A program made the position numbers and the translations under genes. The notes below the pieces were generated by a model. It was not told where the DNA came from. It searched no databases and saw only the letters and a list, made by a program, of their open reading frames with translations. A DNA stretch of 63,821 nt, the filler included, from Chrysochromulina tobinii (taxonomy: Eukaryota): NCBI GenBank assembly GCA_001275005.1. It is 6 parts of 6 records of this genome, joined end to end, with 100 filler letters (N's around TTAATTAATTAA, not from the genome) between each part and the next. Parts side by side here need not be neighbours in the genome. Positions count along the whole stretch, not along the records: positions 29,380 to 49,367 come from JWZX01000563.1; 5 more parts are not named here. One strand, given 5' to 3'. The number at the start of each line of letters is the position of its first letter. Positions within the stretch are counted from its first letter, which is position 1. Below, one piece after another: positions 35,901 to 46,831 of the stretch.

Positions 35901-38900
35901 CGCACGTGGTGCTGCTGCGCCGCTGGCGACGCTCGAAGAGCTTCAGGCCAACGGTCAGGCGGCTGCAAGGTACCGCCTTCCCTGGCCCGGACGACGAAAT
36001 GGCGCGGATGCTTCCCGAAGGCGTCGAGTTCACTTCGGTGGAGAAGCTCACCGTCGGGAGCGAAACGTCCACGCCGCCTCCCTCGCCCCCGTCGCATGTG
36101 GTGGCGCCGCAGCCGGCCGAGATTGATATCTCGCCCCCCCCGAAGGGCGGGATTGATATCTCGCCCCCCCCCGAAGGGCGCACAGAGCCGCCGCGCCCGC
36201 CCCTCGAGTTCCAGCCTCAATCTGCTCAGCCATTTGAGAGGTTCGCCGAAGGGATCGTCGACGCGCCAAGCCATCCAGAACGCCGACGGGCCCACAGGCC
36301 TTGTGACAGACGACGAGCTGCACGCAGCCCCGTCAGTGCCTCCGATGCGCAAGCAGCTCTTCGTGATGCTGCTCAAGCGGTGGACCTGCCTCAAGCGCAA
36401 CAAGAAGGGCTTCTTCACGCAGCAGATCCTTCCTGTGGGGCTCGTCGCCGTGATCTTGCTCATCCTCACTTTGGAAGACCCGCGCGTCGGCCCGCCACTC
36501 CGCATGCATGCATCCATCTACCGGCGCACGCGCTGGGGGGGCGAGCAGCCGGAGCCGCCCACGCTCCACGTGGCCAACCGCGCGCGCGACACTGAGCTCT
36601 TTCGGCACTACTCGACGTACTCCCTCGACTGGCAAGAAATTGGCGCGGCCGATTCGTACAACCTGAGCCAGTACCTGCTCGATACGTACAACGATCACCA
36701 GAGTCGCGCCACTCGCCTCGGCGGCGCGTTCGCGGGCGATATGGTCCACTTCAACTTGTACTTTGGAGGCGGCGGGTTGGAGGGCGTGCTCCTGGGCAAC
36801 GGCAACTCGTCGGCCGTAGATCCTGAGGACCTCGCTGCCCTTTCGGGCGGCGTCGCGGTCGCGTTGCTCACGTGCTCGCGCTGGCAGCCGGGCGGTGTCG
36901 GTTTGGTCGGTTGGACCCCGGGCATCGTCGCGCAAGCGCTCCTTCCCAGCCTCAACCTGAGCGCCTCCACTGAAGCACTCGTGATGTCGCTCGTGCGGGG
37001 CGCCAACGGCACCCTCGCTGGCCTCAACGTGTCAGCCTCGGGGCTCGCTGGCCTGGCGGCGGGTGCGCTTGCAGGCTCCATCTACCTGTCCAATAGCAGC
37101 GTATCGAATAGCAGCAGTGGCTTCAACAGCAGCGTCGTCGTGGGCACGGCTCCGACCAATCTGATCACCAATCTGATCACGGACGCGCTCGCTACGGTGA
37201 TCGGCCCCGCTGTCAGCGCCGGCCTCGCCCTCGGCGCTGCGGTCGTCAACAACGCCTCGGTCGCTGCCGTCGGTGCGGGCGTCGGGACTGGGCCAGCGGG
37301 AGATCTGATCTGCGCGGGGCTCGGCCAGGTCAGTGTGCTTGACGCCGAACTGAGCGCTGCAGGCGTCCCTGTCGCCGCCCGCGCCGACGGCTTTGCGACC
37401 GCGAATCCAGCCGACTCCCTCGGCAGCGCACTGGTCAATGGGCAGCCTTTGCGTGAGGCGGCGCTTGAGCTGCTCGAGGACAGCGCTGGGCGCGCCGCGA
37501 CTGTGGGGGTCGGCTTCATCTTCGACTCGATCACGTACGACCCGTGGCTGCCGCAGCTGCGCGCCGCGCTCAACCCCATCACGCCCCTACTAGTCGCTCT
37601 CTCATGCAGCACCTACCCGTGCTCGCTAGTTCGGCCAGCCAACGAGCAGGCGCTCACACTCGCACTGCGCGCGGCGCTCGTGGTGGTGGGCGGCTGGACT
37701 TCAGCCGAGGCAAGTAGCCTGATCACCGTGGATCGCATACGACGCTCGCTCCCGTACATCCGCGTCTTCAACAACCTCGTCACAGAGCTCGAGGGGGTTC
37801 GTCGGGGCAACGAGGTGCGACTGCACTCGATCGAGAACTTCCCGCTCCCCCTCGCCGACCTCGCCGAGCTTGTCGCGCTGATCGCCGACGTCAACCCGAC
37901 GGGCCCGTTCACGGCGCTCCGCCCCGTCCTCGACGGCTGGGCTGCCGACGGCGCTCCCCTCACCATCCCGACCACCGCAGAGGCCGCGGCCGGCGTGGCG
38001 GCCGACGCGGCGGGCCAGAACTCCACATTAGGCGACCGTGAACAGCTCAACCTGCGCCAGCTCACGCTTCGACTCGGGATGGTCTGGCTTGGCCCTGCGA
38101 GCCTCAAGGTCAACCACTTGGAGCTGACCGCCGTTGGCACCTTTCAGGCTTCTTCCTCGCTATCCTCGCCGCCGTCGCCACCGCCGCCGCCGCCGCCCGG
38201 CCCAATGCGCCTGACCATCGGCCACCTGGAGCTCTCGGACAGCGTGATCGCCTATGTGAATCTGAGCTATGCGGACACTCGCACCTCGGGCTCCGCCGCG
38301 GGCTTCACGTACGACGCGCGTGTCGTGCCGAGCATCTACACGGCACCCTGGCTCAATGTCTCTCTTCCAGTGCAGCTCACGGTGCTGCACAACACCTCGT
38401 CGGCGCACGCGATGGCCGTCTTCCTCGGCGAGGCGAGCCAGTCGGCGTGGTACGAGGCACACGCAGCGATGCACCCGCCGCCACCGCCGCATTTGGGTGT
38501 GGTTGGCGACGCCCGTGCGCCGATCGGCCCAGTCAAGTACGAGGTCTTCAATGCGCCGCTGCCGCTCACGCGCCGCGCAGCCCTTGAGGTATGGCGGACC
38601 CTGATTGCGACTGATTGCGACTGATTGCGACTGATTGCGACTGATTGCGACTGATTGCGACTGATTGCGACTGATCTGATTGCGACTGATTGCGACTGAT
38701 TGCACCTCCGTCCGCCCTTGAAGTACGGCGGACCCTGGCCTTGCTCTCAAGCCAGTGCATGCGAGCGCTCACCGCGGCGCCCTCTCCCCACAGGTACGGC
38801 TGATCCTGGCCTTGCTCTCGTCGATCTTCATGCTCGTGCCCTTTTGTTACATCCCGGCATCGGCGGCCGTCTTCGTCGTGATGGAGCGCATCTCCAAGTC

Positions 38901-41160
38901 GAAGCACCTGCAGCTCGTCTCCGGCGCGAACCCCCGGCTCTACTGGCTCGCGACGTTCATGTGGGATCTTCTCGTGTACCTGCTCGTGGTCTCGCTGTGC
39001 ATGGTCGTCTTCCGGGTGTTCAACGAGCCCTCGCTCATTGGAACGTTTCAGCAGGGCGCCGCCATCTTCTGCGTGCTCATGCTGTACGGCATCGCGGTGC
39101 TGCCGCTCGTCTACTGCTACTCGTTCCTCTTCGACTCACCCACGACGGCGCAGATCTCGATCATCATCTTCAATTTCGTCGCCGCTTTTGCGATGGTCAT
39201 CGCTCACCAGATCATGAAGGAGCTCCCGAACACGCAAGCCGCTGACGCGGCGCTCGTCTGGCTCTACCGCTTCCTGCCCGGCTACAATTTTGGTGAGGCC
39301 GTCATCAACCTGACCACTAACTACTATCAGGGCCTGCTGCTCGGCAGCGCCGACCCTCCCTTCTCCTGGAAGGTGATCGGCCGACCCCTCCTCCTCATGT
39401 CCTTCGAGGCCGTGGGCTACTTTCTGCTGCTCCTGCGCATCGAGGCTTCCGCGCAGACATACGCCAAGCTTGAGCCGTGCCTCGCGCTGCTCTGCGGCGT
39501 GCGCGAGCCTTCTATCGACCTCTCGCGCCGCTCGCGCTTCGCCATTTACGCGGCGCTCATCTTGATCGTAGTCGTGCTTTCCAGCAATATCACACAACCG
39601 GGTGGAGGGCTGCTTCTCGCCGCGATCGTGCTGAGCACCGCAGCCGGAGTGCTCTGGTATGAGCGCCGGCTGCGGCGCACCGGGGGCACGGCCGAAGCGC
39701 ACGCCTCCGCGGAGCTCACCAAGCGCGAGGGCGGCACAGCCTTCGATGAAGAGAGTGACGTGGCAGCTGAGCGGGCGCGAGTCGCCGAGCTCGTCAAGTC
39801 GCACGACGAGCACTCTCGGAGGCTCACGGGCGTCGAGGAGGCCGTCCTCATCTCGGGCCTGCGAAAGGTGTTCCCCGGCCGTGGTCTGGCGGCGCCGAAA
39901 GTGGCCGTCGTCGACCTCTCGCTGGGCATCCATCCGACAGAATGCTTCGGCTTCCTTGGCGTCAACGGCGCGGGCAAGACGACGACTCTCTCGATCCTCA
40001 CGGGCGACTATCTGCCTTCTCGCGGCGGCGCGTGGCTGGGAGGCTACCACGTGGTCCATGGCATCCGACGCGTGCGCGAGCGCATGGGGTACTGTCCGCA
40101 GAGCGATCCGCTGCTCGAGCTCATGACGGCGCGAGAGACTCTCACCATGTTCGCGCGCCTTAAGAACTTGCCCGAGGATCGCATCCCATCGCTCGTGCAG
40201 CAGCTGCTGCACAAGGTGACACTCACGCCGTACGCCGACCGCGTGTGTGGCACCTACTCTGGCGGTAACAAGCGCAAGCTCTCGCTCGCCATTGCCCTCG
40301 TAGGCTCACCCGCCGTGGTCTTCCTCGACGAGCCGTCGAGTGGGATGGATCCTGTCTCACGACGCCACATGTGGGACATCATCATGCGAGAGCGCAAGCA
40401 GCGCTCGATTGTGCTGACCACCCACTCTATGGAAGAGTGCGAAGCGCTCTGCACGCGCATCGGCATCATGACGGCTGGACGGCTACAGTGCCTCGGCGGC
40501 CAGCAGCACCTCAAGTCCAAGTATGGGGGCGGGTACACGCTCGAAATGCGTGTGGCCGATGCAAAGGCGGAGGCGCTGCCCGCACGCATGGCGCGCCTCT
40601 TCCCGGGAGCTCGGCTCGACCAGTCGCACGCCGGCAAGCTCACGTACGAGCTGCCCAAGTTCGAGGCGACGGGCGGCAAGAGCCTCGCTGAGGTCTTCGA
40701 GACCATGGAACGACACAAGGATGCACTAGGGATCCTGGACTACTCTGCCTCCCAGCCCTCTCTCGAGTCCATCTTCCTCGCCATCGCTGATAAGGACATC
40801 AATCGGAAGCCCCGCGAGGACATCAATCGCGAGGATGATGTCGCCCGCGCCACCAACGTGCCTGCACGGAAGGACAGCGTGCCGCCATCACTCGAGCTCC
40901 ACGCGATGCCGCAGCGCGCGGCCGCCGTCGGCAAGCAGGAGGACTCGTCTGAGACCGAACGCTCGGGGTACGACTGGATGCGCTCGCCCGCCACCAGCAG
41001 CCGCACCCATCCCGACTCGCCTTCGGTGGCCGCCCCCACCGAGGGTGAGCCATCGTATCGGCTCGCGTACGGCGGCTTGGAAATCCAAGGACCCCCCCTG
41101 TCCATCAGATTTGGTGCGGCGCCCGCGCCCGCCGCGGTGCAACCCGACTCATCGACATGA
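32999..41160 (+). CDS. ABCA: Full-size ABC transporter, subfamily A; apparent +1 homopolymer frameshift at 36164-36172, intron 38589-38793
   Basis: QLGAILRKNLLLKRR; VVEKEQRLKQTMRIMGL; NBD1 LLGHNGAGKTT / LSGGMKRKL / LDEPSSGMDP / TTHYMDEAD; NBD2 GVNGAGKTT / YSGGNKRKLS / TTHSMEECEALC. Confidence 0.95.
38589..38793 (+). other. GT-AG intron (205 nt) with nested duplications and (CTGATTGCGA)n filler
   Basis: Splicing gives AALEVRLILALLSS; a degenerate copy of the spliced junction lies at 38714-38748; ends TGCATGCGAGCGCTCACCGCGGCGCCCTCTCCCCACAG. Confidence 0.9.
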
Positions 41161-42045: not shown

Positions 42046-43833
42046 TCAGAGGGCGACGTCGGAGGAGTAGGTGCCCGCAGTCAGCTTCTTGGGCTCACCC
42101 GACGCATTGGTAATCTTGACGGAGCCCTCGATGACCACGCCGTCCTCCATCTCGATGTTCGCGCCCTCAACGGTGAGCTTCTTGCACTTGATCAGGGAGG
42201 GCGGCGCGCCGGGGACGAGTTTCTTCAGCTGGTCGACGAACTTGTATGCGTCGTCGAGCTTGATCGTCGGCGGCACGCCCTTGCACTCCTCCCTGAGCAC
42301 CATGCGCAGGTCGGTGGTGACCTCATACGCGTCCGACATGAGCGCGAGCATGTCGGCTGTCGTCTTGACCGGTGCGAAGCGCGTGCGCGGGATAAGGATC
42401 GCGGCCGCCGTCGGGAAGGCTGAGATGGCCGAACCCATCGCCGTCTCGAGCTGCAGCACCTTGGTGGACGCCTTGTCGCGCGGGTCGACCGTCTTGCCGT
42501 TCTTGATGACCGGCAGAGGGAGCGCGCCGTCGAATTTGGTGAACGCCGCCTTAAGTTCCTCGAGGTTGACCCACAGGTTGTTCGTGTTGAAGAACTTGTA
42601 CTTGCCCACGTTTTGGAACTCCTTTTCGTCCGCGTCGGGGCACTGCGCAGCCTCGCGCAGCAGCAGGCCACCGCCCTTGGCCTTGGCCAGGTGGCCGCCC
42701 TTCTTATCCGCGTCGGTGCGCTCGGCGCACTCCATCGCAAAGGGCGAGCCGGACGCTGCGAACCAGGTGAGGAGCTTGAGATCCATCGTAGCGCCTAGGT
42801 TGTCCGAGTTGGAGACGAACATATACTTGTATCCCTTGGCGAGCAGCGCATCGAGCGTGCCCGTGCCCACCATCGCCGGGTACAGGTCGCCGTGGCCGGG
42901 CGGGCACCACTCGCACTCTGGCTTTGCGGGCCACGAGGCGGGCGTCAGGTCGTCCTTGGTGATCTTGGGCGCCTTGTTCTGCTGGAACTCGAGGGGCAGA
43001 CCCTCGGACTGGAGCGTCGGGTACTTGGCCAGGTACTCGAGCGTGTCCGCCGAGGTGGCGAACGAGTTCATGAGCATGAACGCGAGCGGCTTCTTGTACA
43101 CGTCGCGCATCTGCTCGACTTGGAGGGCAATGAAGTCTAGGAAGGTCTTGCCCTGCTTCAGATCAAGTAGCGATTTGGCCTTCTCAAGGCCCATGCCCGT
43201 GCCCAGACCGCCGTTGAGCTTCACCATGACGCAGCTCTCGAGCAGCGCGGGGTTCTCGGCGGTGAGCGCCGCGTAGTCAGGAAGGCTATCCACCGGCTCG
43301 ATGCTCGACTCAGGGATCATAAGGTCGGCGCCCGACGTGAGCACCTTGAAGTTGTACTTGAAGGCGTTTTGGGCGGCGCTGTTCATGCCGTCGGCCGTCA
43401 TCTTCTGCTCATACGAGGGCCAGAGCGCTGTGAACTTCTCGTTCTCGGGGGTTTCCATCTTCGAAGCTTTGAGGAGGTAGTTGGCGATGAAGGTGAAGGG
43501 ATCAGCGGGACGCTCCTTGAGTGTCGCAGCAACGACCTGCGGTAGGGTTTAGGAGGGCGCGCGTGAAGGTCGAGGCATCGCGTGGCGGTGGCAGTCGGCG
43601 CCGTGACCGGAGCTGGCCGCAAGGGAGGCACCCTCTCACCTCAGCGATCTTCTTCTCGAGATCGAAACGCTGCAGATATGCGATGTTCGACTCAGCCTGC
43701 AGAGCGCGACGGAAGAGGGCGGTGAGCGGAGAAAAGCGATGCCGGCAGCAGCAGTAGGGCGCTAAGTCTGGCGTCTATCGGCTGAAGTGAGCCAACGGTC
43801 CGCGACAGCGCATCGGGCGTCAAGTCGTACCAT
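42046..43833 (-). CDS. UGP: UTP-glucose-1-phosphate uridylyltransferase with N-terminal RIIa/Dpy-30-like extension; exons 43833-43831, 43696-43640, 43536-42046
   Basis: KLNGGLGTGMGLEKAKS, LMNSF, WCPPGHGDLY, VSNSDNLGA, FFNTNNLW, QLETAMG, RFAPVK. Upstream GT-AG introns add MAESNIAYLQRFDLEKKIAEVVAATLKERPADPFTFIANYLLKASK in frame. Confidence 0.95.
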
Positions 43834-44033
43834 GCACGCTGCGAAGATAGAAAAAAGATCAAAAAGATTCCTGAAAAGTCTGGGATCCTCGGAGATTTCG
43901 CTACAGGAAACTTCTATGTTCACTTTGTTAAATGTACATGGTTCGGGAGCGCACGCCTTGACGCCCTCTGCTCGAAGACCCTCTGTGAAGCCTCACGACA
44001 CGTGACGAAACTTGAAATAACTTGAAAACCAAC
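43834..44033. promoter_or_regulatory. Probable bidirectional promoter between the UGPase and EF-hand genes
   Basis: 200-nt AT-richer interval between two divergent ATGs (43833 on -, 44034 on +). Confidence 0.55.
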
Positions 44034-44911
44034 ATGCCCGGCGTGCCCACCTCGGAAGAGGTGACGGCCTACCTTGCCGCGCACAAGCTCGAACCTGTAA
44101 TCGAGGATGCCGTAAACGACGCCGTGCTGAAGCAGGTCAAGGTGAGATGGCCACAAGCGCAGCGGCCACGCAGGCCAGCCTCGTGAAACATTCCTGCTCC
44201 GCACGGAGAGTACCGATTCTTCGCTTTGACGCCCTATCGCCGTCGCTCTGCCTCTCTCTCGCGCGCAGAACCCGTTCTGGCACATTGCACAGATCCTTCT
44301 CAAGAAGAGCGAGGAGGTGGGCGAGGCCAAGAGTGGCACTCGGGTCTCCCTCGACGGCGCCGTGAAGGAGAGTCCCGTGAAGAGGCCTGCGTTCGCGCCC
44401 GAGGCGGTCGTCATCGGCGGCGGCCGTGGACAGGAGATTGACGAGGCAGGGCTGACGCACACCTTCACCAAGAGCGAGGGCACGCTTACCGACGTCCTGC
44501 AGGCGAAGCTCAAGTCGTTTTTCGACAAGATGGATTTGGACAGCAACGGCGAGGTTTCCAAGGAGGAGGCTGAAAAGTTCTGGGGCAAGAACTTTGCCAA
44601 ATTGAATGCGCAGTCGATGTTCAACGGTGTGTCTCGCGCGCGACCCACGCTGCCTCTGCCCGCGTCGCGTCGCGCCGCCCATCAGAGCGCGCGCCGCGCT
44701 CTCCATCTGAGCTCTCGCAACGACGCCTCTGCACCCCGGCTTCGCAGAGGTCGACGAGGACGGAAACGGCACCATCACGTGGGTCGAGTTCCTCGACTTT
44801 TGGAAGAATGTGGCCGCCAATGGGTACTCGCAGGAGGACCTCGAGGAGGAGGTGCAGATGATGATGGAGGGCGGCTCTTGGGTCGACTTTGACGACGGCC
44901 GTACGACGTAA
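44034..44911 (+). CDS. Two-EF-hand calcium-binding protein with N-terminal RIIa/Dpy-30-like domain; exons 44034-44141, 44269-44626, 44748-44911
   Basis: MPGVPTSEEVTAYLAAHKLEPVIEDAVNDAVLKQVK|NPFWHIAQILL; EF loops DLDSNGEVSKEE and DEDGNGTITWVE; canonical GT-AG introns keep the frame. Confidence 0.85.
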
Positions 44912-45484: not shown

Positions 45485-46657
45485 TCAGCGTTGTCCGGCA
45501 CGGGGGGGCGTAGTCTCCAACGGCACTGCCGATAGCGGCAGGGTCGTCGCGCTGTGATGGAGCGGCATGCTCTGCGACGTCGTGGGCGGCGGCGGCGGCG
45601 GCGGCGGCAGCGCCAGCGGAGAAAAGTCGAGAGGAATTCCTTCGAATTGCGAGTTGAGTAGGCTCGAGTTCAGCTGCCGGCTGGGCGTGGCGAAGCTCGA
45701 GGAGAGCAGCTGTGAGTCGCGCCGGCGCGCCAGCCAACGCTGTGCGAGCCACGCGGGGCATCCCAGCAGCACCGCCACCACGAGTGAGATCACAGCGATT
45801 TCATCAAGCGGGTGAACGCCGGTCGTGGCGAGCATTAGGCTGCCTGCAACTAGCATGCAAAGGACCAGCCGGTGCAGGGTGGCCGTGTCGAGCGCGCGGT
45901 TATACTTGTTGCCCAGCGCAAGGCCCGCAAGTGCCGCCGCCACCACCGCCACATGCGACGCCACGTCCGCCGAGGTCGCGATCACGAGCGCGCGGACCGC
46001 CAGCAGGTAAGTCAAACGCGCAATCGAGAGCAGGCATTGAAAGACGGAGGATGTGCTGCGCCATGTCTGCTTGCTCAGGCTGCGGCCGCTCCAGCGCACG
46101 TAGAGCATGAGTGGCGGGCCGGCGACACCGGTGAGGCCGCCGAGCCCGCCCGCGCCACAGAAGCATCCGACGGCACATAGCAAGGCTCGCCGGTCGTGCA
46201 CCAAGTCGGGCACCGTGCCGACTGGTGGCTCCACCGGCGGCCATGATGGGTGACCACGATGCATGCGATGCTGAGAGACGCCGCTTTCGATCGCCAGTAG
46301 CAGCAGCAGCAGCCCAAGACCTCGCGTCACCCAGACGAGCGCAGTCTCATTCAGCAGAAACAGCACCTGAGTGAAAGGAAGGAAGGAGACACCAAAGCAG
46401 ACGATGCCCAGCGCCAGCAGTCCGACGTTGAGTCCGCGAAAGAAAAGCGCTGCTTGCACCACACCCACGACCGCCTCGGGCAGCGCCAGAGCTAGCACGG
46501 CACTCTTGGAAGTGCCGTCGACGAGACCCAAGAGCGAGAGAAGATGAATCGCAACGTTGAAGGTGATGCCGGCTCCAAATGTCGTCAAGCCGAAGAGGAG
46601 TTCAGCGATGAATGCGGTCACCGCGAGACCAGAGGTGAGCGCCGCGGCACTCGACAT
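45485..46657 (-). CDS. TauE/SafE (TSUP) family membrane transporter
   Basis: Polytopic hydrophobic ORF with two half-repeats, GLTTFGAGI and GGLGGLTGVAGPPLMLY. Confidence 0.75.
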   Translation of the reverse strand: MSSAAALTSGLAVTAFIAELLFGLTTFGAGITFNVAIHLLSLLGLVDGTSKSAVLALALPEAVVGVVQAALFFRGLNVGLLALGIVCFGVSFLPFTQVLFLLNETALVWVTRGLGLLLLLLAIESGVSQHRMHRGHPSWPPVEPPVGTVPDLVHDRRALLCAVGCFCGAGGLGGLTGVAGPPLMLYVRWSGRSLSKQTWRSTSSVFQCLLSIARLTYLLAVRALVIATSADVASHVAVVAAALAGLALGNKYNRALDTATLHRLVLCMLVAGSLMLATTGVHPLDEIAVISLVVAVLLGCPAWLAQRWLARRRDSQLLSSSFATPSRQLNSSLLNSQFEGIPLDFSPLALPPPPPPPPTTSQSMPLHHSATTLPLSAVPLETTPPRAGQR

Positions 46658-46831
46658 GATGTGTTATAGAATCATGATGAGCGAAAAGGTCAGCTAAGCA
46701 AAATAAGGTCAGCTAACCGTTCGTGGGGATGGCGCCTCGGCGCGGATGGTGCGTTGGACATGCGAGAATCATGAAGAGCCGAACCGTTCCACGAGCGCCA
46801 CGATACGGGCCCGATCGTCAAGCGTCAAGCG

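Follow-up and report, generated by a model that had tools for sequence, protein, structure and literature searches.

Do two genes that stand head to head, and whose products begin with the same general kind of docking domain, encode partners? The question is raised by a 63,821-nucleotide (nt) stretch of DNA from the haptophyte Chrysochromulina tobinii (assembly GCA_001275005.1; the window), in which a gene for UDP-glucose pyrophosphorylase (UGPase; minus strand) diverges from a gene for a 209-amino-acid (aa) protein with two EF-hands (plus strand). An initial annotation had read a RIIa/Dpy-30-like domain at the start of both products and had proposed that the two may heterodimerise or dock together. 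The N-terminal peptides that it quoted are both exact in the sequence, and profile comparisons agree with it in placing both domains in the RIIa/Dpy-30 clan. Our tentative reading, plausible if somewhat short of probable, is that the locus comprises divergent genes for a UGPase and an EF-hand protein that each carry a dimerisation/docking (D/D) domain, and that the predicted dimers would tether both proteins to a scaffold by way of one of its amphipathic helices.

The familiar settings of D/D domains are PKA, COMPASS, and proteins of the ciliary spokes and central pair, and the textbook examples of enzymes carried as cargo are enolase and the adenylate kinases. In a survey of 249 D/D proteins (PMC8339350), two D/D domains together form a bundle of four helices, and the groove of that bundle receives an amphipathic helix of a scaffold; mixed dimers are described for SPA17-ROPN1L and RSP7-RSP11; the mixed SPA17-ROPN1L bundle binds the amphipathic helix better than the SPA17 homodimer does; and RSP7 and SPA17 also bear calcium-binding motifs. 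In a study in mouse (PMC12541429), EFCAB10 (D/D and EF-hand) binds AK8 (D/D and adenylate kinase), and the N-terminal fragments of both proteins are necessary and sufficient. Specifically, the N-terminal fragment of AK8 is recovered in pull-downs with GST-EFCAB10, and Efcab10-/- mice lose AK8 from their cilia. In Chlamydomonas, as described in PMC9113940, a D/D-tagged enolase sits in the C1b arm of the central apparatus, adjoining the EF-hand-bearing proteins CPC1 and FAP246. The combinations of a D/D domain with EF-hands, and with enolase or adenylate kinase, are already published (PMC8339350, PMC12541429).

The N-terminal domains of the two proteins

The UGPase gene model encodes 516 aa, and both of its proposed introns have GT..AG ends. 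The catalytic part matches Pfam UDPGP (PF01704) at 397.8 bits against a cut-off of 22, over profile positions 19-404 of 413, and the protein is 65-98% identical to haptophyte-like UGPases; the named best relatives are haptophytes (Prymnesium, Haptolina, and a 'Calc...' MMETSP entry). The N-terminus, taken as a 52-aa spliced piece (same-species transcript contig L002, positions 65-220), matches Pfam Dpy-30 (PF05186) at 25.7 bits against a cut-off of 22. This pass is marginal on sequence, because the score is 21.8 bits in the full-length protein and 20.0 bits in the transcript contig of a relative (L004), and because only profile positions 23-41 of 42 are aligned (21.7 bits with exon 3 alone). 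A word-based protein search with spliced residues 1-60 gave 14 candidates, none at E <= 0.001.

An alignment of four UGPase N-termini (A2: L002, L004, P0005, and P0040), compared with all solved chains, matches best residues 2-41 of a Chlamydomonas enolase (7n6g_6G, E 1.5e-7), over the whole domain, and next the D/D domains of RI-alpha (2ezw, E 1.3e-3) and DPY-30 (3g36, E 1.6e-3); the link that the initial annotation drew to an N-terminal extension of enolase was therefore right in substance. An AlphaFold2 (AF2) model of the N-terminus (pLDDT 85) has helices at residues 4-10, 13-27, and 32-45, and Foldseek pairs it best with the DPY-30 D/D domain 4riq_E, with TM-scores of 0.77/0.75, a root-mean-square deviation (rmsd) of 1.6 Å over 46 columns, 33% identity, and a match probability of 1.00, the E-value being only 0.1 for so very short a query. 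All Foldseek rows that could be placed by title are D/D domains, axonemal chains, or the N-terminus of Leishmania glucose-6-phosphate dehydrogenase (G6PDH). Judged by sequence and predicted fold, the UGPase N-terminus is a D/D domain of the enolase/RI/DPY-30 kind, and four more UGPases have such an N-terminus: L004, P0178, P0005, and P0040. The last of these, a 552-aa relative, apparently has two tandem D/D-like helix pairs before its catalytic domain.

The EF-hand gene encodes exactly the sequence of database protein P0121, recorded in one source as 'ef hand family protein [Chrysochromulina tobinii]'. Residues 115-174 match Pfam EF-hand_7 (the EF-hand pair, PF13499 and relatives) at 49 bits against a cut-off of 30, and both loops read DxDxNG......E, which we take to be the canonical EF-hand pattern. 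The family comprises 29 proteins at E <= 0.001 among 81 candidates, and its best-conserved part is the N-terminal domain (about 20 homologues). An alignment of 11 family N-termini (A1) was compared profile to profile (hhalign) with three sets: it matches A2 with 96.6% probability (E 5e-10, 45 columns), D/D segments of 10 enolases with 98.0% (E 2e-13), and 15 segments positive for Pfam Dpy-30 with 97.1% (E 6e-11), the last two sets having been drawn from a profile search that included A1 and being, to that extent, not fully independent tests. An AF2 model of this N-terminus (pLDDT 76) has helices at residues 7-16, 20-33, and 38-55, and its top structural rows are D/D domains: 7jtk_C (Z 5.3), RI-alpha 3im4_B (Z 4.9), and DPY-30 (Z 4.5). 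The EF-hand N-terminus reads, on its sequence, as a divergent D/D domain in which the first proline of the loop is gone (VKNP).

P0121 itself, searched against solved structures, gives calmodulin-like matches only (residues 102-198), none on its N-terminus, and the sole match of A1 among solved structures, the designed repeat protein 8c3w_A (E 0.042), is taken as chance. The EFCAB10-type C-terminal domain (PF24548) has no match at E <= 10 in P0121 and six relatives; Atlas lists an EFCAB10 cluster at a feature score of 0.85, which serves as a lead only. The linker of the family (44269-44626, alignment A4) holds a conserved (R/K)(R/K)VSLDG in an otherwise variable stretch, presumably akin to a basophilic-kinase (PKA/CaMK-type) phosphorylation site, and the C-terminus, GGSWVDF(N/D)DGRTT, is nearly invariant.

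Splicing of the UGPase leader and the start codon

Six RNA runs (X1, X2, X3, X4, X11, and X14), all 2019 'mixed culture' metatranscriptomes with separate study codes that may yet be one campaign, yield contigs from both genes, which are therefore transcribed. Contigs cover UGPase exon 3 in all six runs, and the splice joint of UGPase intron 2 is present in all six as well as in the JGI contig L002 (same species, 100% identical). EF-hand intron 1 is spliced in all three runs where it is covered past 44200, the other three having loose ends that continue into exon 2 (the stretch compared ended at 44200). For EF-hand intron 2, the splice joint is present in 3/3 runs. Splicing is thus shown for three of the four introns. 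The protein of a relative, P0152, translates through an intron at the position of EF-hand intron 1.

UGPase intron 1, which would join a minimal ATG exon to the D/D domain, behaves differently: its joint (43697/43830) appears in none of the six runs. In particular, the X1 contig continues unspliced into intron 1 up to 43710; a 151-nt record in X3 spans 43685-43835 unspliced; L002, with intron 2 spliced, begins at 43757, inside intron 1; and the relative's contig L004 likewise retains the intron. UGPase contigs in other runs end at 43691 and 43696 (then adapter), at 43697 (twice), and at 43695, where the X14 contig goes on for 30 extra, A+T-richer letters that have no match in the window at three or fewer mismatches; they could come from a chimeric contig, from an exon farther away, or from an artefact of the library. 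That a joint is missing from contigs is no evidence of its absence, since assembly loses short 5' tips. RNA contigs thus bear out UGPase intron 2 and both EF-hand introns; they do not bear out the ATG micro-exon, so that the spacing of 200 nt that the initial annotation gave for the two start codons stays unconfirmed. With intron 1 retained, there is no in-frame ATG ahead of exon 2 and Met46, and an in-frame stop lies at 43777-43775.

The substitution pattern of the leader argues that it is translated. Transcript contig L004 comes from an 84%-identical relative with the same leader. Across Ser3-Lys45 (43 codons), the two differ by 18 synonymous and 7 non-synonymous codon changes, with 6/4/22 differences at first, second, and third codon positions (22 of 32 at third positions), and the two shifted frames give synonymous/non-synonymous counts of 2/25 and 1/26. 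Exon 2 alone has the same character (8 synonymous, 3 non-synonymous; 3/4/10 by codon position), and the likeness collapses immediately upstream of Ser-Asn, to 30% ungapped identity. Such a pattern is the signature of a translated frame; the D/D region therefore appears to be made in at least some molecules, and it is, by this comparison, under coding constraint.

Where translation of that region begins can be read with less certainty. The spliced product begins M-AESNIAYLQRFD, and homologues begin MAESAKAYLERFG (P0270) and MAETPTAYL (P0188). The leader of L004 has a corresponding arrangement, ATGCG|GT...AG, giving MRSNTAYL. When the leaders are shuffled, a tight ATG and donor in the right phase turns up in 2.6% of trials for L004 (114 nt) and in 14.9% for the window (258 nt). 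Because of the ATG-donor arrangement in L004 and the similar starts of P0270 and P0188, we consider an ATG micro-exon at 43833-43831 the most likely start on sequence grounds. The database gene call for P0001, 98% identical, starts at the internal Met and omits the docking domain, and none of the 120 UGPase relatives listed carries a precomputed Dpy-30 annotation.

Evidence for and against a partnership

The likeness of the two N-termini exceeds chance: their local alignment scores 56 against 20.3 ± 4.0 for shuffled sequences, and none of 5000 shuffles reaches 56. The claim that the domains are of the same kind nonetheless holds in the broad sense only. Both are D/D domains, but of separate subfamilies: the UGPase type reads KERPADP and is nearest to the N-termini of phosphoglucomutase and lactonase, and the EF-hand type reads AVNDAVLKQVKNP and is nearest to those of phosphoglycerate kinase and enolase. 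Introns cut the two domains at different places. The difference in subfamily, the low identity given below, and the differing intron positions together exclude, as far as sequence comparison goes, a recent local duplication.

Several observations weigh against the pairing that we favour. The two domains share 33% identity in profile-aligned columns and rank only 69th and 84th among each other's 140 relatives, so that nothing in the sequences, as compared here, marks them as partners. Adjacency by itself is weak evidence of binding. On the EF-hand side, none of seven family proteins matches Pfam Dpy-30 or RIIa (PF02197) at E <= 10, and the A1 profile by itself retrieves no D/D chain from the solved structures. 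For both N-termini, the structural matches of such short helical models are weak (Foldseek E about 0.1 to 1; Z <= 5.3) and may reflect a common arrangement of helices. On the UGPase side, because the ATG joint is absent from all six RNA assemblies and intron 1 is retained in L002 and L004, much of the UGPase mRNA may encode the Met46 form only.

If the favoured reading holds, each D/D domain would dimerise into a four-helix bundle; the UGPase would be docked through its domain on a scaffold, likely axonemal by analogy (in the flagella or the haptonema); and the EF-hand protein could serve as a Ca2+-sensing partner or anchor of the UGPase, after the manner of EFCAB10 and AK8. That the two proteins meet in one complex by any route is a nearly balanced question, leaning slightly towards no; that they form a direct D/D-D/D heterodimer is rather unlikely.

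Known systems offer partial parallels. Like EFCAB10-AK8 of mammalian radial spokes (PMC12541429), the locus sets a small protein with D/D and EF-hands alongside a D/D enzyme of nucleotide metabolism; unlike that pair, the enzyme is a UGPase rather than an adenylate kinase, the EF-hand protein lacks the PF24548 match, and the adjacency of the genes is no part of the mouse system, in which binding and anchoring were shown and would here be predictions. The flagellar enolase of Chlamydomonas (7n6g/7sqc) is the closest solved relative of the UGPase N-terminus (E 1.5e-7) and its kind of D/D is also matched strongly, profile to profile, by the EF-hand N-terminus (98.0%); it too is an N-terminally tagged carbohydrate-pathway enzyme held by a scaffold near EF-hand-bearing proteins, and PMC8339350 adds the Micromonas enolase as a further case. 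It differs in its catalytic domain, and an axonemal location in the haptophyte would follow by analogy alone. With the D/D domains of DPY-30 and of PKA RI-alpha and RII-alpha (PF05186 and PF02197, RIIa clan), the locus has in common a helix-loop-helix of about 40-45 residues and the signature KERPxxP...F(I/L)AxYLL; unlike them, the UGPase domain is fused to a metabolic enzyme and not to COMPASS or PKA partners, and the EF-hand type, without the first loop proline (VKNP), falls below Pfam detection. As RSP7-RSP11 and SPA17-ROPN1L illustrate (PMC8339350), two different D/D proteins can make a mixed bundle; those are RII-type (R2D2) domains, and the haptophyte EF-hand protein has no Pfam RIIa match.

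The main rival account of the locus takes the two as independent D/D proteins that are neighbours by chance, each homodimerising and docking at a site of its own: the EF-hand protein would sense Ca2+ on the axoneme, after the pattern of EFCAB10 and RSP7, and the UGPase would be one more tagged enzyme. We regard this as possible but doubtful. It fits the separate subfamilies and low mutual ranks of the two domains, their differing intron positions, and the commonness of the domain, which has 654 representatives at E <= 1e-3 and occurs on many unrelated enzymes. It must also accommodate the short distance between the genes (about 120-200 nt), the published D/D-EF-hand and D/D-enzyme pair that binds through these very domains (PMC12541429), and the finding that a profile search, with a profile partly built from the two, found no third D/D gene in the 63.8-kb window. 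If a first exon had been duplicated locally and in inverted orientation around the promoter, just such a head-to-head layout with similar 5' coding ends would result, and the shared domain would mean nothing for function; given the 33% identity, the many closer relatives elsewhere, the differing intron positions, and the conservation of each domain type with its own protein family in other species, this origin is scarcely credible.

Two further accounts concern the UGPase gene itself. Retention of intron 1, seen in assembled transcripts of two species, would give a D/D-less enzyme from Met46, so that two isoforms, one docked and one free, may arise from the gene. In the strong form of this account, in which most of the mRNA keeps intron 1 and yields free enzyme, a spliced and perhaps conditional minority yields docked enzyme, and splicing would act as a localisation switch, we consider it unlikely. 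It draws on the retention of intron 1 in L002, X1, the X3 record, and L004, where intron 2 is always spliced; on the Met right after the D/D domain in the window's UGPase, L004, P0178, and P0005, and also in the D/D-phosphoglucomutases P0188 and P0241; and on the start of the P0001 call at that Met. However, assemblers that clip short 5' tips would over-represent the unspliced path in contigs, the depth of a contig is not a local measure, D/D proteins at large show no enrichment of a Met shortly past the domain (9/77), and the strong coding constraint shows that the D/D form matters. The same constraint makes it very improbable that the leader is an untranslated relic, a 5' untranslated region left by an ancestral fusion with translation always starting at Met46: the want of an upstream in-frame ATG in either assembled transcript (L002, L004) and the missing ATG-exon joint would suit such a relic, but the preference for synonymous changes and third positions, its loss in the shifted frames, the sharp end of the likeness upstream of Ser-Asn, and an intron that keeps the frame would not.

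The docking domain in other proteins and the layout of the locus

A search with a profile of both N-termini (A3) retrieves 654 representative proteins at E <= 1e-3 and 33 at E <= 1e-10. A Pfam scan of 58 proteins of at least 140 aa, among the 150 listed of the 654, places Dpy-30 at the matched position in 15 (one also with an EF-hand) and finds enolases in 10, EF-hands in 6 (5 with EF-hands only), other domains in 17, and no Pfam match in 11. The other domains comprise phosphoglucomutase (P0241), phosphoacetylglucosamine mutase, phosphoglycerate kinase, and lactonase; two alanyl-tRNA synthetases, a phosphoribosyltransferase, a GST, a reductase, and a 2'-5' RNA ligase-like protein; C2, Arm, RPEL, LRR-kinase, and anticodon-binding domains; and, weakly, a peroxidase and SAM_3. 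At least two near-complete D/D domains are present in 13 of 124 representative matches.

Phosphoglucomutase makes glucose-1-phosphate, the substrate of UGPase. In two representative phosphoglucomutases (P0241 and P0188), a D/D domain of the UGPase subtype is followed by a Met and then by the usual start of the enzyme; phosphoglycerate kinase and lactonase are also D/D-tagged (P0256 and P0186). The N-terminal ~45 residues of Leishmania donovani G6PDH (7zhy, 7zhv, 7zhu, and 9vp7) match both D/D models (Z 4.4; TM 0.60-0.72), which hints at another sugar-pathway enzyme of a flagellate with a D/D-like N-terminus. A literature search, with most subscription journals outside its coverage, found no paper linking a D/D domain to UGPase and, among the ten listed of 85 papers, none linking one to phosphoglucomutase. 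One could picture a 'factory' for sugar nucleotides and glycolysis, gated by Ca2+ and mounted on the axoneme or haptonema, in which UGPase, phosphoglucomutase, phosphoglycerate kinase, and enolase are D/D-tagged, the EF-hand protein is the Ca2+-sensing anchor of the UGPase, and intron 1 decides between docked and free UGPase; this scheme is improbable.

Other haptophyte-like UGPases have different N-termini. Many (L005, L007, L008, L011, and L014; P0006, P0010, P0020, and P0026) begin MG(x)xxS/C, for example MGCASSK, MGAYCSTSK, and MGVCSSTQ, which presumably resemble N-myristoylation or palmitoylation signals; haptophyte UGPase seems to be given some N-terminal localisation device routinely. 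Among the 120 relatives listed, UGPase is fused to isochorismatase (PF00857) in six, to PF20668 in one, and to histidine phosphatase (PF00300) in one (P0016, P0018, P0024, P0025, P0034, P0102, P0033, and P0120); further candidates are L005, L007/L008, and L012. L005 has a long N-terminal extension, and L012 has an in-frame glutamine-synthetase-like sequence ahead of the UGPase in a contig that may be chimeric. A metagenome scan for relatives gave 16 loci: L001-L003 are the same species (100%); L016 is a 100%-identical fragment covering residues 347-496 only; and the remaining 12 are short and carry no adjacent genes, 11 of them being transcript-like, while L012 (3.1 kb) could be a genomic contig or a chimera.

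The features of the locus are listed in Table 1. The window, with a G+C content of 63% and short GT..AG introns, is eukaryotic in character; it holds 440 N letters. The EF-hand transcript has its 5' end at 43955 in the X1 contig, at most about 120 nt from the proposed UGPase ATG, and the intergenic region between the two genes is likely a bidirectional promoter. Runs X15 and X16, of unrecorded kind, behave as DNA of near relatives and differ there by indels and substitutions. Of the long frames that flank the pair (38722-41160, plus; 45485-46663, minus), one has ABC-transporter Walker A and signature motifs in its translation and the other is a hydrophobic membrane protein; neither bears a D/D domain.

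Table 1. Coordinates of the UGPase and EF-hand genes in the window
Feature	Position	Strand	Content
UGPase exon 3	42046..43536	minus	second half of D/D, Met46, UDPGP catalytic domain, stop codon
D/D second half in UGPase exon 3	43536-43459	minus	VVAATLKERPADPFTFIANYLLKASK
UGPase internal Met46	43461-43459	minus	in exon 3
UGPase stop codon	42048-42046	minus	
UGPase intron 2	43537..43639	minus	GT..AG, in frame; divides D/D between helix I and the remainder
UGPase exon 2	43640..43696	minus	AESNIAYLQRFDLEKKIAE, first half of D/D
Proposed UGPase intron 1	43697..43830	minus	GT at 43830-43829; polypyrimidine tract and AG at 43698-43697
Proposed UGPase start codon	43831..43833	minus	would close a short 5' exon (ATG|GT)
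Intergenic region common to both genes	43834..43954		locally A+T-rich; likely bidirectional promoter
EF-hand exon 1	44034..44141	plus	MPGVPTSEEVTAYLAAHKLEPVIEDAVNDAVLKQVK, first two-thirds of D/D; gene model is that of P0121
EF-hand intron 1	44142..44268	plus	GT..AG, within D/D
EF-hand exon 2	44269..44626	plus	end of D/D (NPFWHIAQILLKKSEE), linker with TRVSLDG, first EF-hand
EF-hand intron 2	44627..44747	plus	GT..AG
EF-hand exon 3	44748..44911	plus	second EF-hand, conserved C-terminal GGSWVDFDDGRTT, stop codon at 44909-44911

For the D/D family, these results suggest that UGPase joins the enzyme cargoes, a combination that our literature search did not find, and the family search would add phosphoglucomutase, phosphoglycerate kinase, and others. 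They also point to a problem of annotation, in that database calls of this UGPase begin at the internal Met and so miss the docking domain. If the pairing is true, the locus would be a compact, genetically linked test case for the recruitment of a D/D-tagged enzyme by an EF-hand D/D protein, which has been shown only recently, for EFCAB10 and AK8 in mouse, and a local supply of UDP-glucose or UTP would be tied to Ca2+ signalling in an ecologically important group of algae.

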